Below are positions 5,543 to 53,954 of a stretch of DNA of 64,000 nt, piece by piece. The notes under the pieces were generated by a model. The model did not search any database. It was not told the origin of the DNA and worked only from the letters and a program-made list of their open reading frames with translations. Both the position numbers and the translations under genes were made by a program. Location: assembly GCA_040766265.1 (NCBI GenBank), contig JAXGQW010000014.1:2494-66493 (forward strand), read 5' to 3'. The stretch comes from Verrucomicrobiota bacterium (GTDB lineage: Bacteria > Verrucomicrobiota > Verrucomicrobiia > Limisphaerales > J093). Within the stretch, counting starts at the first letter, position 1; every line of letters begins with the position of its first letter.

Positions 5543-5620
5543 CGGGGGAAAGGGCGCTGACGAGACTGCCCCCAGGCCAAACGGATACTTCTTAGCGCGG
5601 CAAAGCCGCAACCAAACGTC

Positions 5621-6280: not shown

Positions 6281-7171
6281 ATGCTCGGCCCGGTGTTGTT
6301 CGAGAAAGTCACGTTGGTTGGCGTCGGTCTGCTGGGCGGATCGCTCGGTCTCGCCCTGCGCCGTCGTCGGCTGGCCGCGGTCGTCACGGGCTGCGTGCGC
6401 AGGGCGGTCGGCATCAACGAATGCATCGAGGTCGGGGCGGTGGACGAGGCGACTCTCGATCTCGAAGCCGCGGTGCGCGGTGCCGATCTGGTCGTTCTCT
6501 GCACTCCCATCGGTCAGATGGCCCAACTCGCGGCGCGCTTCGGACCCGCTTTGAAACCCGGCGCATTGGTCACCGATGTCGGAAGCGTCAAAGGCAGCGT
6601 TGTGCGGGAGGTCGAACCGCTGGTTGCGTCCGCTGGGGGTCTGTTCCTTGGCAGCCACCCGATGGCCGGCGCGGAAAAGACGGGGGTTCGCGCCGCTCGA
6701 GCCGATCTCTACGAAGGCGCGGTGTGTGTCATCACGCCCACGGCGCATTCCGACAACGGGGCGCGCGAGAGAATCGAGGCGTTTTGGAAGGCGCTGGGTT
6801 CCCGCATCCTGGTGTTGTCGCCGGAGCAGCACGACGATCTCGTCAGCCGATCGAGTCACCTCGTGCAGGTGGTCGCCGCGCAGTTGGTCAACTATGTCCT
6901 CGGACCTGACCGTCCTCCCGAGCAGCGGCTGCTCTGCGCGGGTGGTTTTCGCGACGCCACCCGGATCGCCTCCGGCTCGCCCGAGATGTGGCGGGACATC
7001 GCCCTCGCCAATCGCAGGAGCCTCGCCCGTGCCCTGGATGAGTTGGCGGTCGAGTTGCACGCCGCGCGCCGGCTCATCGAGGACGGCAACCAGGAGGCCT
7101 TGGCCAGTTTCTTCGCCCGAGCCAAGCAGCGTCGCGACGCCTGGATCGGCTCGAACACCTCGCCTGAATAA
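6281..7171 (+). CDS. tyrA: Prephenate/arogenate dehydrogenase
   Basis: ORF 6122..7171. I place the start at ATG 6281 (MLGPVLFEKVTLVGVGLLGGSLG, a Rossmann GxGxxG). Also has HPMAGAEKTG and FRDATRIA motifs. The stop overlaps the aroA start (TAATG). Confidence 0.85.
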   Translation: MLGPVLFEKVTLVGVGLLGGSLGLALRRRRLAAVVTGCVRRAVGINECIEVGAVDEATLDLEAAVRGADLVVLCTPIGQMAQLAARFGPALKPGALVTDVGSVKGSVVREVEPLVASAGGLFLGSHPMAGAEKTGVRAARADLYEGAVCVITPTAHSDNGARERIEAFWKALGSRILVLSPEQHDDLVSRSSHLVQVVAAQLVNYVLGPDRPPEQRLLCAGGFRDATRIASGSPEMWRDIALANRRSLARALDELAVELHAARRLIEDGNQEALASFFARAKQRRDAWIGSNTSPE

Positions 7172-9960: not shown

Positions 9961-10197
9961 CTAGCCTGCATTTCTCACCACTTTTTGCCACCGCGAAGCC
10001 GGAGTTCACAAGAGAAGTCAGCATGCAGGCTAGGAAAGCAAAACCGCGCCCGAGTGGAGGGATGGAACCGGGCAACAGAGTTTCGCCGCACCCGCGAGGT
10101 TTCGGAAGCGCTCCAAACCTCGTTCTTCCCTGTGCGGGCGCGGTTTTGCCACAGCCCGGATTTCAGATGACTCCTTCAAATGGTGAGAAATCCGGGC
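9961..10197. repeat. REP/BIME-like hairpin array (modules R1-variant, R2a, R3)
   Basis: Three consecutive hairpins: CTAGCCTGCAT...ATGCAGGCTAG (9961-10033); GCAAAACCGCGCCCG...CGGGCGCGGTTTTGC (10037-10149); GCCCGGATTTC...GAAATCCGGGC (10153-10197). Confidence 0.8.
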
Positions 10198-12901: not shown

Positions 12902-13301
12902 CCTAGCCCGCATATTTCACACCCCGACGGTGCACAGGGCGGTCAGACTTCGCACGAGGACTGCAATGCGGGCTAGAAAAGCAAAACCGCGCCCGGTCCC
13001 AGAGTCAGAGAGATGCAACACACTGTTCATATGGAAGAACACCTTCAGGACCGACGGGATCCTCTTGGGTCCCTTTCCGGGCGCGGTTTTGCCAACTAGC
13101 CCGGTTAGGAGTCCTCGCGAAGCGTGTGAAATAACCGGGCTAGCCCGCATATTTCACACCCCGATGGTGCACAGGGCACTCAGACTTCGCAAGAGGACTG
13201 CTATGCGGGCTAGGCCCCGGCGAGAACCGGCTGAAGCCGACACCCAACCGCGTCTGGGGCTGGCGCGGTGTTCGGTGTGCCGCCTTCAGGCGGCTCGTCG
13301 C
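12902..13301. repeat. REP/BIME-like hairpin array (R1, R2b, R3, R1, R4); the intact paralogue of the array split at 43.7/51.4 kb
   Basis: R1 CTAGCCCGCAT...ATGCGGGCTAG 12902-12975. R2b GCAAAACCGCGCCCGG...CCGGGCGCGGTTTTGC 12980-13091. R3 TAGCCCGGTTA...TAACCGGGCTA 13096-13141. Second R1 13140-13212. R4 13212-13301, which is the reverse complement of the unit at 29204-29288. Confidence 0.85.
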
Positions 13302-15340: not shown

Positions 15341-15578
15341 TAGCCCGGATATTTCATGAGGCTTCGCGGGGTCTCATATCCGGGCTCTGGCAAAACCGCG
15401 CCCGCACATGGAAAAACGAAGTTCGGAGCGTTTCGAAATCTCGCGGGTCCAGCGACACTCTGTTGCCCGGTTGCCTCCCTCCACTCGGGCGCGGTTTTGC
15501 TTTTCTAACCCGCATAGCAATCATCCTGCGAGGTCTGACCGCCCTGGGCGCCGATGGGGTGTGAAAGATGCGGGTTAG
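15341..15578. repeat. REP/BIME-like hairpin array (R3, R2a, R1), inverted relative to the array at 9961-10197
   Basis: TAGCCCGGATAT...ATATCCGGGCT (15341-15386). GCAAAACCGCGCCCG...CGGGCGCGGTTTTGC (15390-15500); its interior is the reverse complement of 10052-10134. CTAACCCGCAT...ATGCGGGTTAG (15505-15578). Confidence 0.8.
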
Positions 15579-30880: not shown

Positions 30881-31017
30881 GCCCCCGGACAGCGTAGGGT
30901 GCCTATTGTGTAATGAGCGACAGATGGAAGACAGTTCTTGGCAAAGGCCGTCCTTGCGGCTGCCCGCTCCGTTCGGGTGAGAACGAATGACACGCGGCGG
31001 CGCGCCTGTTGCATTTC

Positions 31018-34000
31018 ATGATGGATATGACCCTATTAAGCACTCGATGGTTCCTGGAGCGATGGTTGAGACTGCCGCTGGCCGCCTTGGTGGTCGGTTG
31101 TCATGCACAGATGCTCGAGGGGCATGCAGCGGCCAGATCCGCCCCGATACCGGCGGAGCAGGTCGGCATGGTGGCTGAGAGACAGTATCGGGGGGAGGGC
31201 GCGTCGGTTGAGGCCACCCTCGAGGGGGCGCGGCTGATCTGCACGTTTCAGCGCATCGAGGGGGAGGCGACGGGCGAGGGCCTCTGGCTGAGTTCGCTGC
31301 CTCGAGAGTTCGGGGAGGAGGGGCTGCGTGTTATCGCGCTCGAAGTGGGACGCGGGGGCGACATGGGTTCGGGCAGCGCTGGTTCGGACATTGAACTGCA
31401 AGGAGGCGGTGGCGTGCTCCCGGCGGTCGGACGTGTCGAGGTGGCGGGTTCAACGGCGCGTTTCATCCGTCCGGGTTTGACCGAGGAATACTCGGTGAGC
31501 ATCGAGGGAGTGCGGCAGGATTTTGTCATCGAGCAGAGGCCGGGGGGTGCGGGCCGATTGCGCGTGGAACTGGGTGTCGACGGGGCTCGAGTCAAGGCGT
31601 CGGCGGATGGGGCTCGGCTGGTGGCGGATCGCTCGGGGCGTGAATTGACCTACAACCGCTTGCGTGTGGTCGACGCCCGGGGGCAGGAACTTGATGCAAG
31701 AATGGAAGTGCGGGGCGAGAGCCGTCTGGCGGTCGTTGTGGAAGATGCGGCGGCTGCATATCCGGTGCGGATTGATCCGGTGTTCAGCGATGCGAATTGG
31801 GTGAGTTTGGGGGGTGTATGCGGAGCCAATGGCGAGGTGTACGCGGTTGCGGCCGACGATTCGGGCAACGTGTACATAGGCGGCGAGTTCGCCGTTGTGG
31901 GAGATGCCGTGGCCAACGGCATTGCCAAATGGGACGGAACTGGCTGGTCGGCCTTGGACACCGGGCTTGGGGGGACCGAATTCCTTGCCGTCTATGCATT
32001 GGCGGTATCGGGCACAGACCTCTATGTCGGTGGCTCGTTCAAGACGGCTGGCGGGGTTGAGGCGCAGCATATTGCCAAGTGGGACGGCAGCGCGTGGACG
32101 GCCTTGGGCTCCGGGGTCAATGGGTGGGTTTACGCCCTGTGTCTGATCGGCACGGATCTCTATGCGGGGGGCGATTTCACCTTGGCCGGCGGTGTCGAGG
32201 CCAATTCGATTGCCAAATGGGACGGAAGCGCCTGGTCAGCTTTGGGATCGGGAATGGGCGGCACCGAATCACCGAGCGTGTACGCCCTGGCGGCATCCGG
32301 CGGCGATCTTTATGCCGGAGGCTGGTTCGTCACGGCGGGCGGGATCGAGGCGAACTACGTCGCCAAGTGGGATGGAAGCGTCTGGTCGGCGCTGGGACCG
32401 GGCATTGGCGGGGGTTTCTCGGCCTCCGTCCACGCGCTGGCGGTGTCGGGCACCGATCTCTATGTCGGAGGTCAGTTTTACATGGTGGGTGACGTCTATG
32501 CGGGTCACATCGCGAAATGGGACGGCAACGCGTGGTCGGGTCTGGGGTGGGGTCTGATGAGCATGGATCTTTACACGATGGTTTATGCCCTTGCAGTGTC
32601 CGGCAGCGACCTTTACGTGGGGGGGCGGTTCACGATGGCGGACGATGTTCCGGCGGATCACATTGCGAGGTGGGATGGGGCCGCGTGGTCGGCCGTGGAT
32701 TCCGGGGTCGGGGGGGTGGAGTATCCGGCTGTTCGGGCGCTTGCGTTGTCGCCGAGCGCCGACCTGTATGCGGGAGGCGTGTTTACGCAGGCCGGAGGCG
32801 TTGGTGTCAGTCACATCGCCCGTTGGAACCGGAGCGGATGGTCAGCCCTGGGTCAGGGGATGAACGATACGGTGAGTGCGCTGGCACTGTCCGGCAACGA
32901 TCTCTACGTCGGAGGCAGTTTCACGACGGCGGGCGGGGTTGCGGCCAAAGCCGTCGCCCGATGGGACGGGACGGCTTGGGCGGCCTTGGGATCTGGGATG
33001 AACGATGCGGTGTGGGCGCTCGCGGTGCATGGCACAGACTTGTATGCGGGGGGCGGATTCACCATGGCTGGGGGTGTTCCGGCCGATTCCATTGCGAAGT
33101 GGGATGGCAACACCTGGTCGGCCTTGGGAACCGGCATGAACGGCCCGGTTCGTGCCCTGGCAGTATCGGGCAACGCGCTGTATGCGGGCGGCGTGTTCAC
33201 GACGGCCGGAGGCGTGCCGACCAGCTCGATCGCGCACTGGGATGGGGCCAAGTGGTCGGCTTTGGGGGCGGGTTTGGACGGGGAGGTGCGCGCGTTGGCG
33301 GTCTCCGGCAAGAGCCTGTACGCGGGGGGCAATTTTGCCAGGGCAGGCGCGCTCGTCGTCAACTCGATCGCGCACTGGGACGGGGCCAAGTGGTCGGCTT
33401 TGGGGGCGGGTTTGGACGGTGGAGTGCGGGCACTGGCGCTGTCGGGCGATGATCTGTATGTGGGAGGCTGGTTCGCGAAAGCCGGCGGCATTGAGGTGAA
33501 CTGCATTGCCAAATGGGATGGACGGGTATGGTCGGCTCTGGGGGGGGGGATGAACGGAGAGGTTCGCGCACTGGCCCTGTCCGGGAGCGCTCTCTACGCG
33601 GGAGGATCGTTTGCGAAGGCGGGCGGCATCGAGGCCAATCGCATTGCCACGTGGGATGGACGGGCGTGGTGGGCTCTTGGGCTGGGCATGGATCGAGGTG
33701 TCGAGGCCTTTGTGTTGTCCGGCAAGAGCCTGATTCTCGGCGGCGACTTCACCATGGCCGGCACGCACGCCTCCGGTTACGCCGTCGAAGCGCGAATCGA
33801 CGAGGGTGAGAAAGTGATTGGGGGAGAATTCAGCGCGTTGACCTACACGCCGGACGCGGGTTTCAGTTGCACCTTTCAGAACGCCACCATCGGTCAGTGG
33901 TACCGCATCCAGACCTCCGCGTCGCTGATTGGGGACACATGGACGGACCTGATGATTCTGCGATACAAGGAGCCGATTGTCATCAAGCAGGAATCCCCCA

Positions 34001-34098
34001 AGGCCCAGGCCAACGGCCTTTTCCGTGCAGTGACTGATGACGGCCCGTCTTCGGCGACTGGCGTCGGACTCGGATCCGCAGGATCGGAAGCGCGTTAG
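31018..34098 (+). CDS. Large exported protein with about 13 tandem ~46-55-aa repeats (predicted beta-propeller/Kelch-like)
   Basis: Start at ATG 31018 with a signal-like N-terminus. The repeat unit IAKWDG(S/T)AWSALGSGMNGxVYALAVSGxDLYAGGxFTxAGGVxAxx recurs from about 31.8 to 33.7 kb. Confidence 0.8.
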   Translation: MMDMTLLSTRWFLERWLRLPLAALVVGCHAQMLEGHAAARSAPIPAEQVGMVAERQYRGEGASVEATLEGARLICTFQRIEGEATGEGLWLSSLPREFGEEGLRVIALEVGRGGDMGSGSAGSDIELQGGGGVLPAVGRVEVAGSTARFIRPGLTEEYSVSIEGVRQDFVIEQRPGGAGRLRVELGVDGARVKASADGARLVADRSGRELTYNRLRVVDARGQELDARMEVRGESRLAVVVEDAAAAYPVRIDPVFSDANWVSLGGVCGANGEVYAVAADDSGNVYIGGEFAVVGDAVANGIAKWDGTGWSALDTGLGGTEFLAVYALAVSGTDLYVGGSFKTAGGVEAQHIAKWDGSAWTALGSGVNGWVYALCLIGTDLYAGGDFTLAGGVEANSIAKWDGSAWSALGSGMGGTESPSVYALAASGGDLYAGGWFVTAGGIEANYVAKWDGSVWSALGPGIGGGFSASVHALAVSGTDLYVGGQFYMVGDVYAGHIAKWDGNAWSGLGWGLMSMDLYTMVYALAVSGSDLYVGGRFTMADDVPADHIARWDGAAWSAVDSGVGGVEYPAVRALALSPSADLYAGGVFTQAGGVGVSHIARWNRSGWSALGQGMNDTVSALALSGNDLYVGGSFTTAGGVAAKAVARWDGTAWAALGSGMNDAVWALAVHGTDLYAGGGFTMAGGVPADSIAKWDGNTWSALGTGMNGPVRALAVSGNALYAGGVFTTAGGVPTSSIAHWDGAKWSALGAGLDGEVRALAVSGKSLYAGGNFARAGALVVNSIAHWDGAKWSALGAGLDGGVRALALSGDDLYVGGWFAKAGGIEVNCIAKWDGRVWSALGGGMNGEVRALALSGSALYAGGSFAKAGGIEANRIATWDGRAWWALGLGMDRGVEAFVLSGKSLILGGDFTMAGTHASGYAVEARIDEGEKVIGGEFSALTYTPDAGFSCTFQNATIGQWYRIQTSASLIGDTWTDLMILRYKEPIVIKQESPKAQANGLFRAVTDDGPSSATGVGLGSAGSEAR

Positions 34099-42382: not shown

Positions 42383-43487
42383 TCACTTCGCCGGCAGAAG
42401 AACAATCGAGCGCAGGTTCACAACGGCGCCGCGAGGCATTTCCCTTGCCTTGAGGGTGATGTCCACGGGGCCGGTGGCGCGGATCTGAACTCGTCCCACT
42501 TGGGCCGTCACAAAGTCGTCCCATCCCAGGGTGGCCGGAACGGTGGCGGAATGCTCGTCGTCGCCAATTTGCATGCTCACGACACTGCCCTCGGCGCCGG
42601 GGGCACAGGCATAAGTGGCCTCGACGATGTAGTCGCCGGCTCGAGTGATGGTGACCGGCCAGGTGGCGTAGTCTTTGGCATCGATCCAGTAGCCGAGGTT
42701 CGGCTCACCGCTCCCTTTGGTCTCGGTCTTGAGCAAGTGGCCGATGATGTCGGCGTCCGCCGCTCGCAGCGTGAGGGCGCCGTTGGTCTCCTGGCGAATC
42801 CGGGACACCACCACCATGGGCGGGCCGTCGATCTCGCAGACGACCACGCCGGCATAGGGGGATGGCGGTGCGCTGGGGACCGAGATGCGTTTGCCCTCCT
42901 CCCGGTCGGTCACTGCCAAGGTCTCACCCGGTTTGGCCAGGAGGTAGGCCTTCCTGACGCGACTGACCAGCGGGACATCAAGTTGGCCGTTCCGGGGCCA
43001 ATCAAACACGTGAAGGAAGAGCTTGCCGGGCTTTTGAGTGCATCGACCCCAGGCGAGTTTCTTGAAGGGGCTGGCGGTGGTGGAATAGATCGCCTCGCCG
43101 TTGACCTTCATCCAGGCGCCGACTTCCCCAAGCCGCTGCAGCGAAGGCTCGGGGATCAGCCCCTCGCTCGTAGGACCGACATTGAGCAGGTAGTTGCCGC
43201 CTTTGCTGGCGCAGTCGATCAGGTTGCGGACGAGCACCTGGGTCGGCTTCCAGTTGTGGTCGTAGCTTTTGAAGCCCCACGTGTCATTCATCGTCATGCA
43301 CGCCCCAGTGAATGAACAGCCCGAAGCGCGCCTCGCGCCACCACTGCATGCGGGCGTCGCGTTGCCGCGGGGTCTCGTCGGCGTAGGGATCCGGAGAATC
43401 GCCCGCCTCAACCGGGACCAAAGGACCAAACACGAGAGCAGCGGCCGCGATCACCGGAGTCAGGAAGGATGAAAGCCATGCAGGCAT
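42383..43487 (-). pseudogene. GH29 alpha-L-fucosidase remnant with an internal deletion of the catalytic core
   Basis: The N-terminal piece (signal peptide, then WWREARFGLFIHWGV) ends at about 43303. It joins out of frame directly to the distal part (TMNDTWGFKSYDHNWK..CASKGGNYLLNVGPTSEGLIP) plus C-terminal beta-sandwich/CBM-like domains (ORF 42383..43429). Confidence 0.75.
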
Positions 43488-43542
43488 GGCGAGGAGTCTC
43501 CTCAGCCATTGGAAGACAACAAGGAAAAACAGATCCATGCAC

Positions 43543-43731
43543 CTAAACCGCATATTTCACACCCCGTCGGTGCACATGGCGGTCAGACTTCTGAGACCGC
43601 TATGCAGGTGAAAAGCAAAACCGCGCCCGGTCCCAGAGTCGAAGTACAACACACTGTTCATATGGAAGAACACCTTCAGGACCGACGGGATCCTCTTGGG
43701 TCCTTTCCGGGCGCGGTTTGCCAACTGGCCC
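43543..43731. repeat. REP/BIME-like array (R1, R2b, and the left stub of R3) at the left border of the island
   Basis: Colinear with 12902-13100: CTAAACCGCATATTTCACACCCCG..., GCAAAACCGCGCCCGG...CCGGGCGCGGTTTGC, then CCAACTGGCCC. Confidence 0.8.
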
Positions 43732-43913
43732 AATTGAACGAAGCCGCTCCGCGAAAGCGGCGAGGAACGCCGCCTCGAACGGCATGTTCATCTGGCGTGC
43801 GGCCCTCGGTAAGTCGTTCGGCATTGTGTCCTGCCTTCCCGCGGCGTAGTTCCGGACGCCCGGCCGCCTCCAAGGCGAACCGAAGCGTAAACCAGGCATC
43901 AACTCACGTTCGT

Positions 43914-44788
43914 ATGCATAAAAAACTCGAGCCGTTCACGCCAGCCTAATCCGCTTCACCGACGACCTGCGTTTGCTCCCGCTGCTGCCCCGCACCCAAC
44001 AGGCCTACCTGGCCTGCGTCCGGCAATTGGGCGAGCACTTCCACAAAGCCCCCGAGGAGGTCCGCCCGAGGAACTCCGTCAGTACTTCGTCCACCTCAAA
44101 ACCGAACGTCACTTCTCCCGCTCCAGCTCCGCAGGCCCTCTGCGCCATCAAGATGTTCTGGGAGAAATCCCTCCGCCGCCCCTGGCCCGCCGAGTCCAGC
44201 TGGTCCGCGCCACCCCAGGTTCAAGCTCCCTGTCATCCTCTCCGCCACCGAGGTGCCGCCAGATCCTCGCTTCCATCCCCGCCCTCGATCATCGCGTCGC
44301 GCTGACCACCATTTCACCTCCCTGCAGCCTGCGCCTGGGCGGCGCTCAGCCTGGAAGTCGGCGACATCGATGCCGGGCGCATGTTCCTCCATCCGCGCCG
44401 GCAAGGGCAACCGCGACCGCTACTCCCCCTTGCCCCAACGCACCTTGCTCCTGCGCCGTGAGGGCTGGAAGGCTCATCATCCGCGCCTCCTCTTCCCTGC
44501 CAAGGGCCACAACGGCCAAGGCGCTGCCACCGCCGCCGAACCCATGTGTCGCACCACCCTGCAAGCGCGCCTTCGTCTCGCGCTCAAGGCCAGCGGCGTC
44601 AGCCGCTCATATCCATTCGTTGCGTCACAGCTACGCAACTCACCTGCTTGAGCAAGGCGAGAACCTCCGCCAACTCCAAGTCAACCTCGGTCACAAGAGT
44701 CCCACCGCCACCCGTCATCTACACCCATCTGACCACCCTCTGTCGCACCCAGCATCAGAAACGCCTCGACGCCCTCATGGCCGATCTC
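43914..44788 (+). pseudogene. Tyrosine recombinase (phage-integrase family), frameshifted, copy 1
   Basis: Pieces in three frames: TQQAYLACVRQLGEHFHKAPEEV; GNRDRY.PLPQRTLLL; SLRHSYATHLLEQGENLRQLQVNLGHKSPTAT..YTHLT (the R..H..Y catalytic region). Confidence 0.7.
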
Positions 44789-44799
44789 TGGGCCGGCTC

Positions 44800-45983
44800 A
44801 TGTCGGGATCGGCCCTGCCGGGGCCGGCGGTGACTCGATCCGTTTCCACCAGCTGCTCCAACGCTGGGGGCCGGCTTATCTGAAACAGTTCGGCACCGCC
44901 GTGCCTGGCGAAGCCGCCAGGTGCTCAAAGCTCCTGGCCTGCCGCACCCCGCACTGGGCAACGAACTCTTCGCCTGCACCCAGCGTGCGGCCACGTTCTC
45001 CGATACACTATCCTCCTGCAACGATCGGCACTGCCCTCAGTGCGGCCAGACCGACGCCGGCCAGTGGCTGGCCAACCACGCAACCCTGCTGCTCGGTCCC
45101 TTACTTCCTGGTCACTTTCACCGTCCCGCAGCCACTGCATCGCCTCTGGATGCGCTCGCACCCCGGCCAGGATTTGGATCTGCTCTTCGCCACCTCGGCT
45201 CCATGCTCCAGGATCTGGTCCGCAACCCCCAGCCGCTCCAGGGCTTCCCTGGGCATGCTCGGCCTCCTCCACACCTGGAGCCGCACCCTCATCTACCACC
45301 CTCACGTTCACTACCTGGTTCCCGCCGGTGGCCAGGCCTCGATCAACGCCGGTGGGTTCCCAGTCGTCCCAAGTTCCTCGTCCATGTCCATCCGCTGGCC
45401 GATCACTACGCACCCTCTTTCGTCAGGCCCCTCAACGCGATGCGCCCGACCTGCTCAAGACCTTGCCCGCTCGCGTCTGGAAGCAGCGTTGGGTGGTCCC
45501 ATTGCCAGCCCGCCGGTTCCGGTGAGGCCGCCTTGCGTTATCTCAGCCGCTACGTCTTCAAAGACCGCCACGGGCGACCGCGACTTGCCCCTGCTCCCCC
45601 GATGGCCGGGTGCGCTGGCGCTATCGCGACAGCACCTCGGGGCGTGAAGAGCACCTGGACCTGGAACCCTTCGAGTTGATCCGCCGTTTCCTCCAGCACG
45701 TCTTGCCTTCCGGCTTCCCGCCGCGTCCGTCGCTTCGGCTGGCTTCACCCCGCCGCCCGCGCCAAGCTCAATCGGGTGCGCGCCTTGCTCCGCCAGGCCC
45801 CGGCGCTCACCCACGCCGAGCGTGCCGCCGCAGCGGCCTGCCCCAGCCCGACTTCCGAACCGTCGAACCGCTCCCGACCTCCCAATCCAAGCCGCTGCCC
45901 GCAGTGCCGCCAACCCATGACCCACCGGCTCCTGGCGAGCGGGGCAACCCCAGTTACGTCCCCCAGTCCGCGGCCCACCATGA
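44800..45983 (+). pseudogene. IS91-family-type Y2 HUH transposase, frameshifted, copy 1
   Basis: Recognisable blocks: CNDRHCPQCGQTDA (zinc module), LLHTWSRTLIYHPHVHYLVPAGG (HUH), and EAALRYLSRYVFK, which is readable only in another frame. Confidence 0.7.
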
Positions 45984-46389
45984 GCGCGCCCCTCCCGCCA
46001 GCATTCCTGGCAGCGGCTTCGAGGCTCACCCTCCACCGGTGGCGTGTCGGCAGTCCCCGCCCAAAACCTCTACCTCACCTTCCGCCCAGCGCGCGGGCAA
46101 GCGACCAGACCAAACCAGAGACCCTTGATGGGGACTTCCAAGGACAGCAACGCGGGCCACGCCCCCACGCCACGGCTGATCCGGGCGCACCGGCTGCACT
46201 GGGCGCAGACACTTTCCTCAAACAGATCCTCGCCGACTCCGGTTCCAGGTTGGCCGCGGCTTCGTTCAACCGGGGAATGTAAAGAACGGAGGAGGCGCTT
46301 TGACCCAGACCAAATCACGCCCTTGCCCCGCCTCCTCCGTTCTCTACATTCCTTTGGTCAGTTAGCTCCTGGCTTGAGGACGAGTGGCA

Positions 46390-46584
46390 TCATCTCAGTG
46401 CGAAGGGAGCGAAAACGCAGAGGATCAACCCGGTCACGATGATGAAGAAGCAGAGCTGACGGAACCTTGGGTAGCTCATCCCGCTCAGCTTCTCCGGCCG
46501 CGCTCGGATGTACAGCATCGCGGTCGCCCCCCAACCGACGCAGAACACCCCAATGATGACGCCGAGCAGTGCGTTCGCAGTCAT
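46390..46584 (-). CDS. Small two-helix membrane protein (64 aa), cargo ORF 4
   Basis: ATG at 46584. Two hydrophobic helices (ALLGVIIGVFCVGWGATAMLYI; LCFFIIVTGLILCVFAPFAL). Starts 6 nt after palindrome X2. Confidence 0.5.
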   Translation of the reverse strand: MTANALLGVIIGVFCVGWGATAMLYIRARPEKLSGMSYPRFRQLCFFIIVTGLILCVFAPFALR

Positions 46585-46590
46585 ATCGTG

Positions 46591-46697
46591 AGCTAACGAC
46601 CAGGTGAGGCACGGCGACCGCAGACACCACGGCAGTCACCAGGCCCGGTTCTCCAAGCGAGTGCTCGGGTCGCGGTTGCCTCGACCGTCTGGTTCGG
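46591..46697. repeat. Imperfect palindrome X2
   Basis: Plus strand: AGCTAACGACCAGGTGAGGCACGGCGACC...GGGTCGCGGTTGCCTCGACCGTCTGGTTCGG. It is the sister of X1 (48658-48765). Confidence 0.8.
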
Positions 46698-47010
46698 TGC
46701 CCCCAGCCCCAAAGGGGCGCAAGACGATAGCCCAGGGCAAGCCCCGAGTCGGCGAGGGGTGCCGCCCTGGGTAGAACGCCCGTTGAAATCAGCCAAAGCC
46801 CCAACGGGGCGGAACAATCGGGGGGAGCGTCGGCGCGCTGTGCGTCCCCGAGAGCTGGTCTCGCCCCTACAGGGCTCCGGGGTCTCTTGGGGTGGCTGAC
46901 CCAGGGCGACGCTCGCCTGGGGGCTCGCTTGCCCTGGGCTGGCGTGTCGTGGCCCTTCAGGCCACCCCGGGGTCCGCACCGGTGGATGGCGAGGGATGTA
47001 ACGCACCGAA
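46698..47010. repeat. Non-coding filler made of short G/C hairpins
   Basis: CCCAGGGC...GCCCTGGG hairpins at 46731-46771 and 46900-46938. GCCCC-AAA-GGGGC (46705-46717) and GCCCC-AAC-GGGGC (46798-46810). No credible ORF. Confidence 0.5.
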
Positions 47011-47106
47011 CGCCCCGGCTCAGGCAGGCCGGGCAAATGACGTCTGATTGCCAACCGAGAGGCGATCCCGGCCTTGCCTGCAGCCGGATGGGTAGGTGGC
47101 GAATAT

Positions 47107-47508
47107 CTAATCTGTCTTTGCATCTAGTGAACGCCTCAAGCAGACGGAAGCAACGGCAATGATACCGCCAACAGCCAAAGGCAAAAAGTGAGGAAACTCC
47201 TTCGGATGATATTCGGGCCGGATGTAATTCATGCGAACCCAAAAATACGAATAGTAGGCGAGTCCCAGCAGCAACAGAAGGACCGAGCCGACGCGTCGGC
47301 TGCCGCGCCGCAAACAAAATGTGCCAGAAAGAACCCCACTGAAGCCAACGAGCGCAAACACCACGTACAATCCCACCTCTCCAAGACCCAAGGCAATGGC
47401 CATACTGAGGAAGAGCGCCGCGAGCGAAGTAACGAACGACACTATGATGGCGGCTACGTATCTGCCGAAAAGAGAGGCGATCTGGATTGTGCGTGGTGTC
47501 ATAGCCAT
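47107..47508 (-). CDS. Four-helix integral membrane protein (133 aa), cargo ORF 3
   Basis: ATG at 47508, with four hydrophobic helices. GC is lower than in the surrounding DNA. Confidence 0.6.
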   Translation of the reverse strand: MAMTPRTIQIASLFGRYVAAIIVSFVTSLAALFLSMAIALGLGEVGLYVVFALVGFSGVLSGTFCLRRGSRRVGSVLLLLLGLAYYSYFWVRMNYIRPEYHPKEFPHFLPLAVGGIIAVASVCLRRSLDAKTD

Positions 47509-47599
47509 CTACCGACCCGGATCACCGACCCCGCGCCTGTGACGTCCGATTTGAAACTGAGGCGCTATCGCGGGGTTCGGTGCATCCGGTTTGTTCGAC
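47507..47599. repeat. Imperfect palindrome X5
   Basis: Minus-strand reading: GTCGAAC-A-AACCGGATGCACCGAACCCCGCG...CGCGGGGTCGGTGATCCGGGTC-GGTAGAT. The stem has two bulged bases. The 3' box overlaps ATG 47508. Confidence 0.75.
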
Positions 47600-48208
47600 T
47601 TGCGTTCCGTATCTTCTTCTATTCACTGCAAGCAACAGTGCTGCCCCGACTCCTGCAAGCGGTAAAACGTGCGGCTCCGGGACTGCCAACAATGAAACCG
47701 TCCCGTCGATAGGATTGGAAGTGCTCGGCCACATCGGCGGCATGCGAAGCACGGAGAATCCGACCCAGTCGTAGTCCGAAATGCTCCCGTAGCTTGTCGG
47801 GAGGCTGTCGTCCAGGACCGAGGATCGATCGTCGTCTCGAAAAAGGAAAAAGAGCGCATTCCCATCTGGCAGCGTGGAAGCAATGCCGAAGGCGGGAAAC
47901 TCTCCGGGGTCAAGGCTCACGTTGACGGAACCGCCGACCGAGTGGAACACCACTCCCTCACCAAGAACCTCCAGAGTCACGCTCAAATCCTCGGCCAGAT
48001 AAACGCCGAGATTGGCTGCGGGATCAGTGTCGGCCCACTCATCGGAATACGAAACGTGAAGCCGGAATGAATCACCCGCATCCGCGAATGGATACGTGCC
48101 GCTCCAAGCGTGATCAATCGTCCCGTCGGCAAGGAACGAAACCGTTCCCGCTTTCAGTGCGAAGCCGAAGGCAACCGTCCAGACCAGAATCAAGGCGCGC
48201 GTTTTCAT
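47522..48208 (-). CDS. PEP-CTERM-anchored exported protein, cargo ORF 2
   Basis: 228 aa with a signal peptide (MKTRALILVWTVAFGFALKA). C-terminal VPEP..LPLAGVGAALLLAVNRRR. About 30 extra codons are read out of palindrome X5. Confidence 0.7.
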   Translation of the reverse strand: MKTRALILVWTVAFGFALKAGTVSFLADGTIDHAWSGTYPFADAGDSFRLHVSYSDEWADTDPAANLGVYLAEDLSVTLEVLGEGVVFHSVGGSVNVSLDPGEFPAFGIASTLPDGNALFFLFRDDDRSSVLDDSLPTSYGSISDYDWVGFSVLRMPPMWPSTSNPIDGTVSLLAVPEPHVLPLAGVGAALLLAVNRRRYGTQVEQTGCTEPRDSASVSNRTSQARGR

Positions 48209-48214
48209 GGTGTT

Positions 48215-48319
48215 GTCGAACGCAAAGGTCAGCGACGGGAGCCAGCCGCCGATGACGTTACATTTGTGTTTGAGCTGAACGGCTGGCTCCCGTTAGCTGC
48301 ACCGCACCGTCTGGTTCGC
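48215..48319. repeat. Imperfect palindrome X3
   Basis: Stem GGGAGCCAGCCG (48237-48248) / CGGCTGGCTCCC (48280-48291). Boxes GTCGAAC (48215-48221) and GTTAGCT (48292-48298) on the plus strand. CCGTCTGGTTCGC (48307-48319) matches the X2 end. Confidence 0.7.
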
Positions 48320-48647
48320 TGCTGAATCTTGCTCCCGGAATTCGCGAGCACGTAACAACAGCCTCCTGAATATTTGTGGCAATGTCGCCCCCTGGATAAG
48401 TGTAAAAGCCTGAACTAAGAATCTCACCATCGCTGCACACGAATCCTATATCTGTCACATTAAGTTTTGCGGTGGAAATCGCCACCCACGTTTCATCCTC
48501 CTTCTTCTCAACGATTACGGCGGCCTTTTGTCGTTGCTGCACTACCGAAGTTTCACTCCAAGTCATCGGTCGCGCTTGATTGATCGTAGACGACTCCCGG
48601 CAACCAACCAGCATGATCAAAGCGAACACAGGGGATAGCAATCGCAT
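48258..48647 (-). CDS. Small lipoprotein (129 aa), cargo ORF 1
   Basis: Inside ORF 48258..48920. I place the start at ATG 48647 (MRLLSPVFALIMLVGC, a lipobox). GC is lower than the surroundings. The last ~20 codons come from the X3 arm. Confidence 0.6.
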   Translation of the reverse strand: MRLLSPVFALIMLVGCRESSTINQARPMTWSETSVVQQRQKAAVIVEKKEDETWVAISTAKLNVTDIGFVCSDGEILSSGFYTYPGGDIATNIQEAVVTCSRIPGARFSSEPDGAVQLTGASRSAQTQM

Positions 48648-48657
48648 AGCATTGTGA

Positions 48658-48765
48658 AGCGAACGACCAGGTGAGGCACGGCGACCACAGACCCCGCGGA
48701 GGTCACCGGTTCCAGCCCTCAAACCGAGTGCACGGGTCGCCGTTGCCTCGACCGCCTGGTTGAAC
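48658..48765. repeat. Imperfect palindrome X1, fused to the left tip of unit copy 2
   Basis: Plus strand: AGCGAACGACCAGGTGAGGCACGGCGACC...GGGTCGCCGTTGCCTCGACCGCCTGGTTGAAC. TTGAAC is also the first 6 nt of the unit. Confidence 0.8.
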
Positions 48766-48939
48766 GAAGCCGCTCCGCGGCGGCGAGGAACGCCGCCTCG
48801 GAGCGGCATGTTCATCTGGCGTGCGGCCCTCTGATGATCGTTCGGCATTGTGTCCGCCACCCTTCCCGCGGCATGGTTCGGACGCCCGGCCGCCTCAAGG
48901 CGAACCGGGCGCCAAACCAAAAACTCAACTCACGTTCGT

Positions 48940-49826
48940 ATGCATAAAAAAACTCGACCGTTCACGCCAGCCTAATCCGCTTCACCGACGACCTGCGTTT
49001 GCTCCCGCTGCTGCCCCGCACCCAACAGGCCTACCTGGCCTGCGTCCGGCAATTGAGCGAGCACTTCCACAAAGCCCCCGAGGAGGTCACGCCCGAGGAA
49101 CTCCGTCAGTACTTCGTCCACCTCAAAACCGAACGTCACTTCTCCCGCTCCAGCTCCACCCAGGCCCTCTGCGCCATCAAGATGTTCTGGGAGAAATCCC
49201 TCCGCCGCCCCTGGCCCGCCGAAGTCCAACTGGTCCGCGCCACCCCAGAGTTCAAGCTCCTGTCATCCTCTCCACCACCGAGTGCAGCCTGATCCTCGCT
49301 TCCATCCCCGCCCTCGATCATCGCGTCGCGCTGACCACCATTTACTCCTGCGGCCTGCGCCTGGGCGAAGCGCTCAACCTGGAAGTCGGCGACATCGATG
49401 CCGGGCGCATGTTCCTCCACATCCGCGCCGGCAAGGGCAACCGCGACCGCTACGTCCCCTTGCCCCAACGCACCTTGCTCCTGCTCCGTGAGGGCTGGAA
49501 GGCTCATCGCCATCCGCGCCTCCTCTTCCCTGCCAAGAGGCCACAACGGCCAAGGCGCTGCCACCGCCGCCGAACCCATGTGTCGCACCACCCTGCAACG
49601 CGCCTTCCGTCTCGCGCTCAAGGCCAGCGGCGTCAAGAAAGCCGCTCATATCCATTCGTTGCGTCACAGCTACGCAACTCACCTGCTTGAGCAAGGCGAG
49701 AACCTCCGCCAACTCCAAGTCAACCTCGGTCACAAGAGTCCCACCGCCACCGTCATCTACACCCATCTGACCACCCTCTGTCGCACCCAGCATCAGAAAC
49801 GCCTCGACGCCCTCATGGCCGATCTC
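48940..49826 (+). pseudogene. Tyrosine recombinase (phage-integrase family), frameshifted, copy 2
   Basis: N-terminal SAM-like part sits in ORF 48999..49292 (TQQAYLACVRQLSEHFHKAPEEVTPEELRQYFVHLK). The core sits in ORF 48821..49690 (ALTTIYSCGLRLGEALNLEVGDID..IRAGKGNRDRYVPLP). The C-terminus sits in ORF 49398.. (HIHSLRHSYATHLLEQGENLRQLQVNLGHKSPTATVIYTHLT). There are at least two frame changes. Confidence 0.75.
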
Positions 49827-49841
49827 ACTGGAGCCCGGCTC

Positions 49842-51020
49842 ATGTCCGGGATCGGCCCTGCCGGGGCCGGCGGTGACTCGATCCGTTTCCACCTGCTGCT
49901 CCAACGCTGGGGACCGGCCTATCTGAAACGGTTCGGCACCGCCGTGCCCTGGCGGCAACGCCAGGTGCTCCAAAAGCTCCTGGCCTGCCGCACCCCCGCA
50001 CTGGGCGGCGAACTCTTCGCCTGCCCAGCGTGCGGCACGTTCCATTACGCCTATCACTCCTGCAACGATCGGCACTGCCCTCAGTGCGGCCAGACCGACG
50101 CCGACCAGTGGCTGGCCAACCACAGCAGCTTGCTGCTCCCGGTCCCTTACTTCCTGGTCACTTTCACCGTCCCGCAGCCACTGCGCCTCTGGATGCGCTC
50201 GCATCCACGCCAGGATTTGGATCTGCTCTTCGCCACCTCGGCTCAAGCGCTCCAGGATCTGGTCCGCAACCCCCAGCGGCTCGGGGCTTCCCTGGGCATG
50301 CTCGGCCTCCTCCACACCTGGGCCGCACCCTCATCTACCACCCTCACGTTCACTACCTGGTTCCCGCCGGTGGCTTGGGCCTCGATCAACGCCAGTGGGT
50401 TCCCAGTCGTCCCAAGTTCCTCGTCCATGTCCATCCGCTGGCCGATCACTACCGCACCCTCTTTCGTCAGGCCCTCCAACGCGATGCGCCCGACCTGCTC
50501 AAGACCTTGCCCGCTCGCGTCTGGAAGCAGCGTTGGGTGGTCCATTGCCAGCCCGCCGGTTCCGGTGAGGCCGCCTTGCGTTATCTCAGCCGCTACGTCT
50601 TCAAGACCGCCACGGGCGACCGCGACTTGCCCCTGCTCCCCGATGGCCGGGTGCGCTGGCGCTATCGCGACAGCACCGGGGCGTGAAGAGCACCTGGACC
50701 TGGAACCCTTCGAGTTGATCCGCCGTTTCCTCCAGCACGTCTTGCCTTCCGGCTACTCGCGTCCGTCGCTTCGGCTGGCTTCACCCCGCCGCCCGCGCCA
50801 AGCTCAATCGGGTGCGCGCCTTGCTCCGCCAGGCCCCGGCGCTCACCACGCCGAGCGTGCCGCCGGCGGCCACCCCAGCTCCGACTTCGAACCGTCCGAA
50901 CCGCTCCCGACCTCCCAATCCAAGCCGCTTTGCCCGCAGTGCCGCCAACCCATGACCCACTGCGGCTCCTGGCGAGCGGGCAACCCCCAGTTACGTCCCC
51001 CAGTCCGCGGCCCACCATGA
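49842..51020 (+). pseudogene. IS91-family-type Y2 HUH transposase, frameshifted, copy 2
   Basis: FACPACGTFHYAYHSCNDRHCPQCGQ (zinc module). LLHTW then a frame change to GRTLIYHPHVHYLVPAGG (HUH; ORF 50030..50686). ALRYLSRYVFK (Y-x3-Y). Further shifts occur before RVRRFGWLHPAARAKL and CPQCRQPMT. Confidence 0.8.
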
Positions 51021-51399
51021 GCGCGCCCCTCCCGCCAACGTTCCTGGCAGCGGCTTCGAGGCTCACCCTCCACCGGTGGCGTGTCGGCAGTCCCCGCCCA
51101 AAACCTCTACCTCACCTTCCGCCCAGCGCGCGGGCAAGCGACCAGACCAAACCAGAGACCCTTGATGGGGACTTCCAAGGACAGCAACGCGGGCCACGCC
51201 CCCACGCCACGGCTGATCCGGGCGCACCGGCTGCACTGGGCGCAGACACTTTCCTCAAACAGATCCTCGCCGACTCCGGTTCCAGGTTGGCCGCGGCTTC
51301 GTTCAACCGGGGAATGTAAAGAACGGAGGAGGCGCTTTGACCCTCAGACCAAATCACGCCCTTGCCCCGCCTCCTCCGTTCTCTACATTCCTTTGGTCA

Positions 51400-51438
51400 G
51401 TTAGGAGTCCTCGCGAAGCGCGTGAAATAACCGGGCTA
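51400..51438. repeat. Right part of the split R3 REP hairpin at the right border of the island
   Basis: GTTAGGAGTCCTCGCGAAGCGCGTGAAATAACCGGGCTA matches 13103-13141 of the intact hairpin. Confidence 0.8.
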
Positions 51439-51734
51439 AATCGTGTCGCGATCGCGACAAGGAATTTGCACAGTGCGCAGGTGACGGTGTGGGGAAGGAG
51501 GAACCAGGAAGGCAGAGCGGGCAGCTTCGACCAGCGTCGGAAGGAAGTCCAACTCCTCCAAGCCTTCCTGGCCCGATCTGCACCGGCGCTGCCAGCCCGC
51601 CCCCACCACACACATCCCCCTGCAACCACTGCTCAAGCATATGAGAAGACCATGGGCAGGCGGGCGTCGCTGCACTGGTTCCTGAATTCGCCCTTGCTTG
51701 CCAGGCATGGGCCGCGCGCGCATGATCGGCACCC

Positions 51735-53954
51735 GTGCAGTCCGCCTCGCCCGCCACGCCTCCGGAAAGCCTCGCCGGCTTGATCGAGCGGGTGACGTTT
51801 TTCAACGAAGACACCGGGTTCGCCGTGCTGAAGGTCAAGGCGCGCGGGCACCGCGATCTGGTCTGTGTGGTCGGCGCGCTCGCATCGGTTGCTCCGGGCG
51901 AATACATCCACGGGGAAGGGCGTTGGGTGCAAGACCGCGAGTATGGACTTCAATTCCGGGCCGATGTGCTGACCAGCACGGCTCCGACGACGCGCGAGGG
52001 GATCGAGAAGTACCTGGGCAGCGGCATGGTCAAAGGGATCGGTCCCGTGTACGCACGGAAGCTGGTCGCGAAGTTCGGGGAGCAGATCTTCGACATCATC
52101 GATCGTTTCTCGGCGCGACTCGAGGAGGTCGAGGGCATCGGTCCCAAGAGACGCCATCGGATCAAGGAGGCCTGGGCCGAACAGAAGGCGGTGCGCGAGA
52201 TCATGGTGTTCCTCCACTCGCACGGGGTCAGCACCAGCCGCGCTGTCCGCATTTATAGGATCTATGGCGCTCAGGCGGTCGAAACCGTTCGGCGCGATCC
52301 GTACTGCCTGGCCCGCGACATTCATGGGATCGGATTCAAGACGGCGGATGAGATCGCCCGGAGACTTGGCGTGCCGCACGACTCGATCGAGCGGGCCTGC
52401 GCCGGTTTGGATCACGTGCTGCTCACAGCGACGAACGACGGCCACTGTGCCCTGCCGGTCGAGGCGCTGAGTGAAGAGGCGGAGAAGCTGCTCTCGGTTG
52501 GTCCGGCGGTTGTCGATGCCGCCTTGGAACGTACGTTGGCGCAAGGCAACCTCGCGCAAGAGACGATCGAAGACCAAGCCCTGCTCTTCCTCCCGCGGCT
52601 GCAAAGGGCGGAAGAGGCGATTGCCAACTCACTCTGCCGCCTTGCGGCCATGCCACCGGCATTCCCGAGCATCGATCTGGACAAGGCCGTCGCGTGGTGC
52701 CAGGCGAAGACCGGAACGGAACTGGCTCCCACCCAGCGGGAGGCGCTGCGCCAGGCCTGGTCCGCCCGCGTGTTGGTTGTCACCGGCGGACCGGGTGTTG
52801 GCAAGACGACGCTGGTCAAATCGATACTGCTCATTCTGCGGGCCAAACGGGTGCGTTGCCTGCTGTGCGCGCCGACTGGGCGGGCTGCGAAACGGATGGC
52901 GGAGGCCACAGGATTCGAGGCCAAGACCATTCACCGCCTGCTCGAGGCGCAGCCGGGCTCGGGGGGGTTTCTGCGCAACGAGGCCAATCCGCTCGATTGC
53001 GACTATCTGGTCGTTGACGAGATGTCGATGGTGGACGTGCCGCTGATGCACCAGTTGCTGCGCGCCCTGCCGCGTCAGGCCGGCCTGCTGCTGGTGGGGG
53101 ACGCGGATCAACTGCCATCGGTCGGCCCGGGTCTGGTGTTGCGCCATGTGATCGAGAGCGGGGCGATGCCGGTGGCCCGGTTGACCGAGATCTTCCGCCA
53201 GGCCGCCCACAGCCAGATCGTCATCACGGCCCATCGCGTCAACGAAGGCCAACTCCCGCCGCCGCTGCCGCCCAATGCCGCCTCGGATTTCTATTTTGTG
53301 GAGCGCAGCGACCCGGAGGCCATTCTGCGCACCGTGATCGAGATGGTGAAACGGCGCATCCCGACGCGATTTCATCTCGATCCGGTCGCGGATGTGCAGG
53401 TGCTTTGTCCCATGAACCGCGGGTTGTTGGGGATGCGCCAGATCAACGTCCGACTCCAGGCCGAGCTCAATCCGCAGCGGCCGGACCAGGCGGTGATCGA
53501 GAGATTCGGCTGGCAATTCCGGATTGGGGACAAGGTGATGCAGACCGAGAACAATTACGACAAGGAGGTGTTCAACGGGGATCTGGGGCGGGTCGAGCGG
53601 ATCGACACAATCGAGCGCGAGATGACGGTGCGATTCGACCAGCGGGATGTGATCTACGATTTTGGCGAGTTGGACGAAATCGTGCTGGCGTATGCCATCA
53701 CGGTACACAAGTCGCAGGGATCGGAGTTTCCGGCCGTGGTGATGCCGCTGGCCATGCAGCATTACCTGCTGCTGCAACGGAACCTGCTCTACACTGGGAT
53801 CACGCGCGGGAAGCGGCTTGTGGTGCTGGTGGGGCAGGCCAACGCCCTGGCGTTGGCCGTGCGGAACAACCGCACCCGGCATCGATTCTCGGGGTTGCTG
53901 GCGCGTCTGCGGCGGGAGGGCGGGCTCTGCAAAGGGCAACGTTCGTCAGTTTGA
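51735..53954 (+). CDS. recD2: RecD2-type SF1B ATP-dependent DNA helicase
   Basis: 739 aa with a GTG start. N-terminal OB-like LIERVTFFNEDTGFAVLKV. Walker A VVTGGPGVGKTT, LVVDEMSMVD, LLLVGDADQLPSVGPG, AITVHKSQGSEF. Confidence 0.9.
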   Translation: MQSASPATPPESLAGLIERVTFFNEDTGFAVLKVKARGHRDLVCVVGALASVAPGEYIHGEGRWVQDREYGLQFRADVLTSTAPTTREGIEKYLGSGMVKGIGPVYARKLVAKFGEQIFDIIDRFSARLEEVEGIGPKRRHRIKEAWAEQKAVREIMVFLHSHGVSTSRAVRIYRIYGAQAVETVRRDPYCLARDIHGIGFKTADEIARRLGVPHDSIERACAGLDHVLLTATNDGHCALPVEALSEEAEKLLSVGPAVVDAALERTLAQGNLAQETIEDQALLFLPRLQRAEEAIANSLCRLAAMPPAFPSIDLDKAVAWCQAKTGTELAPTQREALRQAWSARVLVVTGGPGVGKTTLVKSILLILRAKRVRCLLCAPTGRAAKRMAEATGFEAKTIHRLLEAQPGSGGFLRNEANPLDCDYLVVDEMSMVDVPLMHQLLRALPRQAGLLLVGDADQLPSVGPGLVLRHVIESGAMPVARLTEIFRQAAHSQIVITAHRVNEGQLPPPLPPNAASDFYFVERSDPEAILRTVIEMVKRRIPTRFHLDPVADVQVLCPMNRGLLGMRQINVRLQAELNPQRPDQAVIERFGWQFRIGDKVMQTENNYDKEVFNGDLGRVERIDTIEREMTVRFDQRDVIYDFGELDEIVLAYAITVHKSQGSEFPAVVMPLAMQHYLLLQRNLLYTGITRGKRLVVLVGQANALALAVRNNRTRHRFSGLLARLRREGGLCKGQRSSV

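Follow-up and report, generated by a model that had tools for sequence, protein, structure and literature searches.

Introduction

Strand exchange by the integron integrase IntI takes place on the folded bottom strand of its recombination site, after the first base of GTTRRRY and before the second (PMC8876359). Clusters of attC sites lacking an integron integrase are known as CALINs (Cury et al. 2016, PMC4889954), and integrons have already been reported in Verrucomicrobia. The attC sites are themselves subject to site-specific invasion by the IS1111-attC group of insertion sequences (IS) and by group IIC-attC introns (PMC9229058, PMC3971601), and the introns have been reported to be inserted opposite to the cassettes (PMC9229058). 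This article concerns a 64,000-nucleotide stretch of DNA from a Verrucomicrobiota bacterium (contig JAXGQW010000014.1 of assembly GCA_040766265.1, referred to throughout as the window), in which a CALIN has a copy of an IS91-family element on either side. The element also encodes a relative of IntI, and its family inserts at one exact position in attC sites.

The element resembles IS91 and ISCR elements, notably those that carry an integrase such as ISShvi3, in that it has a Y2 transposase with a zinc-binding N-terminal domain, generates no target duplication, inserts in a fixed orientation and has a hairpin downstream of the transposase gene. It is unlike canonical IS91 in that its target is the attC R'' box and its end hairpin mimics attC. 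Site-specific invasion of attC is shared with the IS1111-attC group and the group IIC-attC introns, and the opposite orientation with the introns. Unlike either group, the element has a Y2 HUH transposase and an IntI-like tyrosine recombinase; its insertion point is precisely RYYYAA|C of R'', its own end is a hairpin resembling attC, and boxes of attC format are restored on both sides. Neither a DEDD transposase nor a reverse transcriptase is among the domains of the units, where only the integrase and the IS91 transposase were found. The known attC-invading elements use different enzymes, and the IS91 elements with a recombinase make up a third attC-invading class. Literature searches for attC targeting by this group, or for ends like attC within it, yielded one sentence that mentions ISShvi3 beside an attC (PMC9229058) and a classification of the recombinases (bioRxiv 10.1101/542381), with no systematic description. 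A first-pass annotation of the window, made from its letters alone, was not aware of a description of such an arrangement for this class of element, and the searches bear this out.

attC sites in the window

The first-pass annotation described four imperfect palindromes on the minus strand, X1, X3, X5 and X2, each ahead of an open reading frame (ORF), and counted the terminal hairpin of both copies of the element, X4, as a fifth member. The coordinates, stems, boxes and distances to the ATG codons that it gave were all reproduced by reading the sequence, by an inverted-repeat scan and by folding of single-stranded DNA. The scan returned arms of 24 nt (96% complementary, both copies) for X4 and of 14 nt (100% complementary) for X3, and X1, X2 and X5 folded into the stems described. 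A further palindrome, X6 (47097-47005, minus strand), had been overlooked. The inverse core sites are xxxxAAC...GTTCGCT in X1, AGCGAAC...GTTCGAC in X3, GTCGAAC...GGTAGAT in X5, ACCTACC...GTTCGGT in X6 and ACCGAAC...GTTAGCT in X2. The five palindromes span 93-108 nt, within the range of an imperfect palindrome of about 55-140 nt bounded by RYYYAAC and GTTRRRY, with several boxes departing from the strict R/Y pattern at one position. X1 and X2 are 84% identical across 104 nt and have in common an exact 25-mer, where none is expected by chance and none was ever produced in shuffled sequence. A 20-mer from the 3' arm shared by X1 and X2 occurs at only two places among GTDB representative genomes, both of them metagenome-assembled genomes of Verrucomicrobia.

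The folding energies of X1, X2 and X5 are ordinary for GC-rich DNA (z = 0 to -2.6), and those of X3 (z = -4.6 and -3.1) and X4 (z about -5.5 for the unit 1 copy, X4a) are clearly unusual. Because the energies of X1, X2 and X5 are ordinary, energy was not used as an argument for significance. A crude scan of arm energies for AAC...GTT hairpins failed to tell attCs from other GC-rich hairpins, and its enrichment for IS flanks was just 29% versus 11%; a covariance model was therefore used instead. Rfam has no attC family, and its sole relevant match in the window is to Acido-Lenti-1 (see below), the microRNA matches on X4 being noise.

The covariance model, R1, was built from 18 attCs, none of them from the window: three from the array of a Verrucomicrobiae integron (locus L001) and 15 lying beside metagenomic copies of the element. 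In these sequences 90.6% of cells are paired, compared with 25-42% when the partners are slid, and 12 pairs have changed on both sides. Among attCs outside its training set, R1 scored those of aadA2, aadA1 and cmlA1 in a class 1 integron at 46.1, 42.2 and 33.8 bits, and gave three matches of 51.7-63.6 bits to the remaining attCs of L001. A search of the whole window with filters off gave exactly five strong matches, all on the minus strand within 46.6-48.8 kb: X1 (54.4 bits), X5 (52.6 bits), X6 (50.8 bits), X3 (47.4 bits) and X2 (44.8 bits). The E-values for X1, X3, X5 and X2 range from 1e-11 to 4e-9 (1.3e-11 for X1), and the next-best match in the window has 15.1 bits (E = 0.14). All five matches fill the 5-nt spacer and the two single-base bulges on the 5' arm of the ORF-sense (minus) strand. 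The ORF-sense 5' arm is the canonical place of the extrahelical bases of attC. X1, X3, X5, X6 and X2 are genuine integron attC sites, so that a comparison with an attC covariance model, which the first-pass annotation had recommended, came out in favour of all four of the palindromes that it had placed ahead of ORFs.

The annotation had also considered that the palindromes might be just another repetitive extragenic palindrome (REP) or terminator family. The window does hold a truly dispersed palindrome (GCAAAAC...GTTTTGC, four copies), and some of the hairpins stand just past ORF stops. The X-type sites, however, are confined to the 2.2-kb array and to a single orientation, and neither the complementarity at the cassette boundaries nor the limits of the homology of cassette D, both described below, would be expected of such a family. 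A REP, terminator or miniature inverted-repeat transposable element family with no relation to recombination is thus most improbable, and within the window the option is refuted.

Insertion of the element into attC sites

Metagenomes were scanned with a pattern for the left end of the element, which gave 120 loci with 111 distinct flanks. In 84 of the 111, a G immediately precedes the left end. At 25 loci an R1 match abuts the left end in inverted orientation; 15 of these contributed to the training of R1 and 10, which include the window and an Escherichia coli plasmid, are independent. Units at the R' box in the same orientation as the array were looked for and none was found, compared with 25 of 25 inverted at R''. 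Where both flanks are present, the reconstructed targets are GCCTAA|C, GTCTAA|C, GCCCAA|C and GTCGAA|C, with TCCTAA|C for X1. These loci show that the element family inserts between AA and C of the attC R'' box (RYYYAA|C), always inverted relative to the cassettes.

The junctions read N|TTGAAC...G|TTRRRY, with no target duplication. The 5-nt spacer of the attC is uninterrupted, and the element therefore starts at TT and includes the terminal G, which places the exchange at G|TT / AA|C. An empty-site allele would accordingly be expected to read, for example, ...GAGGACTCCTAA|CCAGGCGGTCGAGG. Immediately past the right end of the element stands (G)TTA, (G)TTG or (G)TTC, a sequence akin to the canonical IS91 target without being identical to it. 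That canonical target is the tetranucleotide GTTC/CTTG.

In the window, unit 2 (48760-51400, plus strand, TTGAAC...CAG) simply interrupts X1. It is inserted in the R'' box of that attC, with junctions ...CCTGG|TTGAAC and ...GGTCAG|TTAGGA and with ends set by alignment of the copies and by comparison with relatives. Unit 1 (43734-46361, plus strand) is a second copy, which on the right ends within the R'' box of the attC of cassette E, and its left flank is DNA other than attC. The rest of the cassette E attC is missing beyond unit 1, where R1 has no match, which implies that a deletion, or a rearrangement mediated by the IS, took place later at the left end.

The same insertion is found in a clinical setting. 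On the E. coli IncC plasmid RCS41_p (NZ_LT985243.1), an inverted unit at 4283-6680 lies in GTCTAA|C of the aadA1 attC of a class 1 integron, the order being aadA2-cmlA1-aadA1-[unit]-qacEdelta1-sul1. The junctions are ...GAACGAATTG|TTGAACGAAGCC and ...CTTATTTG|TTAGACATTATTTGCC. This unit occurs as one full copy in PLSDB, a Shewanella plasmid carries 253 bp of its right end, and none was found in complete E. coli genomes. A related unit on plasmid pPHDD1 of Photobacterium damselae (1625-5889) has as neighbours the reverse transcriptase of a group II intron and a toxin-antitoxin pair of the RelE/ParE type, in a setting that is cassette-like in appearance, with a weak attC match of 15.1 bits abutting the unit.

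Genes and terminal hairpin of the element

In unit 2, an IntI-like tyrosine recombinase is encoded at about 48941-49830 and a Y2 HUH transposase at about 49840-50990. Pfam and NCBIfam matches assign the products of the units to a SAM-like/phage-integrase recombinase and an IS91-family Y2 transposase; the transposase domains of the copies in the window are PF14319 and PF04986, as in a Y2 HUH transposase with a zinc-binding N-terminal domain. Units 1 and 2 are 96% identical and differ by dozens of indels of 1-5 nt. Both are frameshifted as assembled, which reflects either real decay or assembly and consensus errors in a repeated element. Genes near the units are intact even though both IS copies are frameshifted, an example being that for RecD2 (51735-53954). 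Close homologues of the unit number in the thousands in metagenomes, mostly on contigs of 1-3 kb, which is the signature of an abundant repeat.

The first-pass annotation had counted the divergent tyrosine recombinase next to X1 among the features of an integron layout and had proposed a search for the IntI-specific insertion. The recombinase is not the IntI of the array. It lies inside the IS91-family element, and its reconstructed sequence has 29% identity with the IntI of L001, with gaps concentrated opposite IntI residues of about 296-355. Among curated families, intact homologues of the recombinase match TIGR02249 best; their scores of 173.7 and 191.3 bits fall short of the cutoff of 265, and the match is broken into two stretches. 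Judged from the alignment and the scores, the recombinase of the unit is IntI-like but not IntI, and is without the IntI-specific insertion. IS91-associated recombinases have been placed as the closest relatives of IntI that are without the IntI insertion, and the recombinase of the unit falls in the 'Integron-like' subgroup (bioRxiv 10.1101/542381). The recombinase shares with IntI its place in this subgroup, its best-matching family and the position of the crossover, and differs from IntI in that it is without the inserted domain, scores under the family cutoff, would work on R'' and on the other strand of attC, and is encoded within the unit.

Each unit ends in the hairpin X4. In unit 2 the hairpin (X4b, 51301-51406, plus strand) has the R''-like box GTTCAAC and is followed by G|TTAGGA, the final six bases of X4b being derived from the target; in unit 1 the same hairpin (X4a, 46264-46367, plus strand) is followed by G|TTAGCT. 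The conserved arms are GGAATG.A...AAC and GTT..CTACATTCC, and the 3' arm of X4-type hairpins, TCTACATTCC, is nearly invariant among relatives. Across 10 diverged relatives 92.6% of cells in the X4-type hairpin are paired, compared with 34-45% for slid partners, and 8 pairs have changed on both sides. Against R1, X4 scores 9.5-10.8 bits. X4 is the element's own conserved and covarying end hairpin, which has the box logic of attC but no match to the attC model. It belongs to a hairpin family specific to the unit, and its inclusion as a fifth member of the array has to be given up. Of the likeness that had been drawn between its boxes and those of the array, the AAC/GTT logic stands and nothing beyond it. 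Both hybrid sites retain the box format of attC after insertion, and for this reason the boxes had appeared to be shared.

Given these features of X4, the suggestion that one-ended transposition of an IS91-type element left X1, X2, X3 and X5 behind as solo ends is scarcely credible. The AAC/GTT boxes are common to these palindromes and X4. The palindromes, however, match the integron attC model, which X4 does not, carry the attC spacer and two bulged bases, have homologues in an array linked to IntI, and are without the GGAATG...CTACATTCC arms conserved at the ends of the units. What survives of the suggestion is the idea of an ori-type hairpin, which is apt for X4.

Relatives for which flanks are available (L003-L005 and a Herpetosiphon plasmid) have a common left end, TTGAACGAAGC, and a common right end, GCTTCGTTCAAC-hairpin-G|TT. 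The start of the element complements its own R''-like box at 6 of 6 positions. Since the element starts with TTGAAC and ends with the GTTCAAC hairpin and G|TT, circularization would give it a closed and perfectly paired R box like that of a cassette, and the circle junction would read ...CATTCCTTTGGTCAG|TTGAACGAAGCC. One metagenomic contig (L040, positions 1-42 as oriented) starts with the right end of a unit that runs straight into the left end of a unit (TCTACATTCCTTTGAATG|TTGAACGAAGCC). This head-to-tail junction possibly stems from a circle or a tandem.

Organization of the cassette array

The region 46362-48765 on the minus strand is a CALIN in which cassettes A to D are complete, X1 derives from a further upstream cassette and cassette E is truncated downstream. 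The first-pass annotation had seen in this region the layout of an integron cassette array, and both the attC model and the structure of the cassettes confirm the array itself, though not the recombinase as its IntI or X4 as one of its members. The R'' box of X1 (48658-48765) is the hybrid GTTCAA|C made by unit 2, and its R' box is G|TTCGCT. The start of the cassette to which X1 belongs, expected to read G|TTAGGA to the right of unit 2, was not seen by eye in 51406-51735. Cassette A (48221-48663) consists of ORF1 (48647-48258), which encodes 129 amino acids with a lipoprotein-like signal and matched no Pfam family, and of attC X3 (48320-48215). Cassette B (47513-48220) has ORF2 (48208-47522; 228 amino acids), with a weak PEP-CTERM match of 18.2 bits, under the cutoff of 20.7, and attC X5 (47599-47507), the R' box of which is the non-canonical G|GTAGAT. 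Cassette C (47011-47512) comprises ORF3 (47508-47107), for a membrane protein of 133 amino acids, and attC X6 (47097-47005), which has R'' ACCTACC and R' G|TTCGGT and is similar to attC a5 of L001. Exact-protein look-ups with ORF2 and ORF3 gave no match. Cassette D (46597-47010) is free of ORFs and ends in attC X2 (46698-46591). Cassette E (46362-46596) has ORF4 (46584-46390; 64 amino acids) and breaks off after AGCTAA|, six bases into its R'' box, where unit 1 begins.

The boundaries of the cassettes are marked by complementarity between the opening six bases of each cassette and the R'' box that it carries. Cassette A (TTCGCT) complements AGCGAAC of X3 at 6 of 6 positions, and the same holds for cassette B (TTCGAC) with GTCGAAC of X5, cassette D (TTCGGT) with ACCGAAC of X2 and cassette E (TTAGCT) with AGCTAA|. 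The probability of this occurring by chance is about (1/256)^4. Cassette C starts with GTAGAT and has R'' ACCTACC, the complement of which is GTAGGT, so that 5 of 6 positions agree. GGT/ACC replaces GTT/AAC both at the 5' junction of cassette C (47507-47513, minus strand) and in its own R'' box (47091-47097, minus strand), and this ACC/GGT core is a compensated non-canonical recombination core. Each palindrome is functionally the 3' end of the preceding cassette and not a 5' element of the next ORF, which reverses the earlier view that a palindrome heads each of the four ORFs. As 47010-46597 is a cassette free of ORFs, X2 belongs to that cassette and not to ORF4.

One of the two genomes with the 20-mer from the 3' arm of X1 and X2 is that of L001, where the 20-mer lies in the integron array. 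There, the array adjoins a divergent tyrosine recombinase that is a bona fide IntI (TIGR02249, 378.7 bits), ends ...GVRSPLD and has the extra IntI segment, and the cassettes each begin with TTRRRY complementing R'' of their own 3' palindrome. X1 falls in the same family as the attCs of this integron. L001 also holds two copies of a cassette homologous to cassette D. The similarity begins at G|TTCGGT and ends at G|TT, and the three copies have three different left and three different right neighbours. A search for gain, loss or reshuffling of cassette units, which the first-pass annotation had called for, was in this way answered in the affirmative. A match to the Rfam family Acido-Lenti-1 lies in cassette D (46705-46748, minus strand), with 37.8 bits against a gathering cutoff of 37; the L001 copies of the cassette stay below the threshold.

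A search of the window by tblastn with the IntI of L001 met only remnants of the IS recombinases. Because the window has no IntI, the array is a CALIN. It has in common with other CALINs at least two attCs in the same orientation within 4 kb (here, five sites in 2.2 kb with no adjoining intI), R'' and R' boxes, bulged stems, cassette boundaries at G|TT and small, mostly promoterless ORFs of unknown function along with one ORF-less cassette. It departs from the usual CALIN in having one compensated ACC/GGT core and in being bracketed by two IS copies, and nothing essential differs; taken by itself, it is an unremarkable environmental CALIN. The cassettes would be moved by IntI acting on folded single-stranded attC hairpins with a crossover at R' G|TT, and an IntI for this array may be encoded elsewhere in the genome or may have been lost.

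Mechanism of insertion

The bond cut by the element is equivalent to that cut by IntI, but lies in the R'' box. On the minus strand of the window X4 reads 5'-CTAA|C-9 nt-stem...stem-4 nt-GTTGAAC and a target attC reads 5'-RYYYAA|C-spacer-bulged arm... On the cut strand of both X4 and the target, the surplus unpaired bases are on the arm beside the cut, whereas on the bottom strand that IntI prefers they are on the far arm. From this geometry of the bulges, the machinery of the element would select the attC strand that IntI disfavours, and such mirror-image recognition of hairpins would account for the strictly inverted orientation of the units. The tyrosine recombinase most likely carries out the hairpin-by-hairpin exchange, and the Y2 Rep-type transposase would supply single-stranded circles. 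It can be suggested, tentatively, that IS91 elements encoding an IntI relative are self-mobilizing 'mirror-image' cassettes. The attC-analogue hairpin of such a cassette would have reversed asymmetry, the Y2 transposase would supply the single-stranded circles, and exchange would take place at the same AA|C / G|TT bonds on the strand avoided by IntI.

Alternatively, the Y2 HUH transposase alone could insert the element in the manner of IS91, 5' of (G)TT beside a hairpin in single-stranded DNA. X4 would then be oriIS, and the tyrosine recombinase could have some other role such as resolution or excision. This explanation, in both its parts, is quite possible if somewhat doubtful in its own right, and insertion by the Y2 transposase alone is nearly as likely as the preferred model in which the recombinase performs the exchange. 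IS91 inserts 5' to a target given just as a 'tetranucleotide', in one orientation, generally with no target duplication, and has hairpins or palindromes at its ends (PMC10288648). The transposase of the element is solidly of the IS91 family (an intact relative, from L003, scores 333.8 bits against NF033538, which has a cutoff of 125), X4 is situated downstream of the gene for the transposase, as an oriIS should be, and the near-invariance of TCTACATTCC is expected of a protein-binding site. On the other hand, the position of the cut and the geometry of the hairpins coincide exactly with the chemistry of IntI, the co-encoded recombinase belongs to the group closest to IntI, and the closed, paired R box at a circle junction suits a tyrosine recombinase that recognizes hairpins. 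None of these counter-arguments is decisive.

It is also conceivable that the units are passive cassettes, with X4 an unusual attC, and that a host IntI inserted them by recombination between two attCs. The unit is indeed in perfect cassette format (TTGAAC...GTTCAAC-hairpin-G|TT), and the crossover is that of IntI, at G/TT of GTTRRRY (PMC8876359). IntI, however, uses R' of the bottom strand and inserts cassettes in the same orientation, whereas the 25 units are without exception at R'' and inverted. In addition, X4 has fewer than 11 bits against the attC model, the element has a recombinase and a transposase of its own, and elements are also found at hairpins other than attC and in a part of a replicon where no array can be seen (L003, L127). 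Passive insertion by a host IntI is therefore unlikely.

A CALIN invaded by an attC-targeting IS91-family element that ends in its own conserved hairpin, X4, is very probably the best explanation of the locus, and several observations have to be set against it. Both copies in the window are frameshifted, by decay or by assembly error, and the left flank of unit 1 is not attC, with A as the preceding base. R1 is a model made for this analysis and not that of IntegronFinder. There is no IntI within 64 kb, and mobility of these cassettes is thus only predicted. About three quarters of the left flanks of the element have no significant attC match. Some flanks are other hairpins (L003, L112 and L065), and in L062 (3360-3510) a unit lies in the R''-like box of the X4-type hairpin of another unit. 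A 'GAC|' subgroup of flanks has no obvious hairpin. With regard to mechanism, the evidence for a circle junction is one 18-nt contig end, and the data are compatible with either the tyrosine recombinase or the Y2 transposase as the catalyst. Since most left flanks are not attC, attC is a frequent and not an exclusive target, and from the case of L062 it follows that X4-type hairpins serve as targets as well as ends. Beyond the left-end motif, units of the 'GAC|' subgroup (L009, L021, L038, L057, L074, L101, L102 and L114) differ in their interior. Their flanks are of the form ...GAC|TTGAAC and hold no obvious attC, and this subgroup may follow a different rule for its ends or its target.

Surroundings of the array

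The array is flanked by the RecD2 helicase gene and by an internally deleted fucosidase gene. The latter, next to unit 1 (42383-43553, minus strand), is an alpha-L-fucosidase (PF01120) split into two pieces, one N-terminal, covering profile positions 17-43, and one C-terminal, covering 276-345; about 230 profile positions are absent, making it an internally deleted pseudogene. The dispersed palindromic repeat of about 112 nt, GCAAAACCGCGCCCGG...CCGGGCGCGGTTTTGC, occurs at 10038-10149, 12981-13092, 15390-15500 and 43615-43722. It is unrelated to the attCs, and one copy lies 11 nt from the left end of unit 1. It is often found beside a second repeat, CCCGCATATTTCACACCCCGTCGGTGCAC..., at 11700, 12900, 13137 and 43540. 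A long ORF at 31009-34098 (plus strand) contains at least seven tandem repeats of 138 nt (46 amino acids) and is unrelated to the array.

Implications for integrons

A very abundant family of IS91 elements that carry a recombinase repeatedly hits one exact phosphodiester bond of attC, including that of a clinical class 1 integron. Such elements can break up an array, give rise to CALINs and leave cassettes enclosed by IS copies in direct repeat. They also give a testable handle on the origin of the partnership between IntI and attC and on how hairpins encode the choice of strand. If the mirror-image reading is true, these elements would be dedicated parasites of integrons or, alternatively, a surviving relative of the ancestor of the IntI-attC system.

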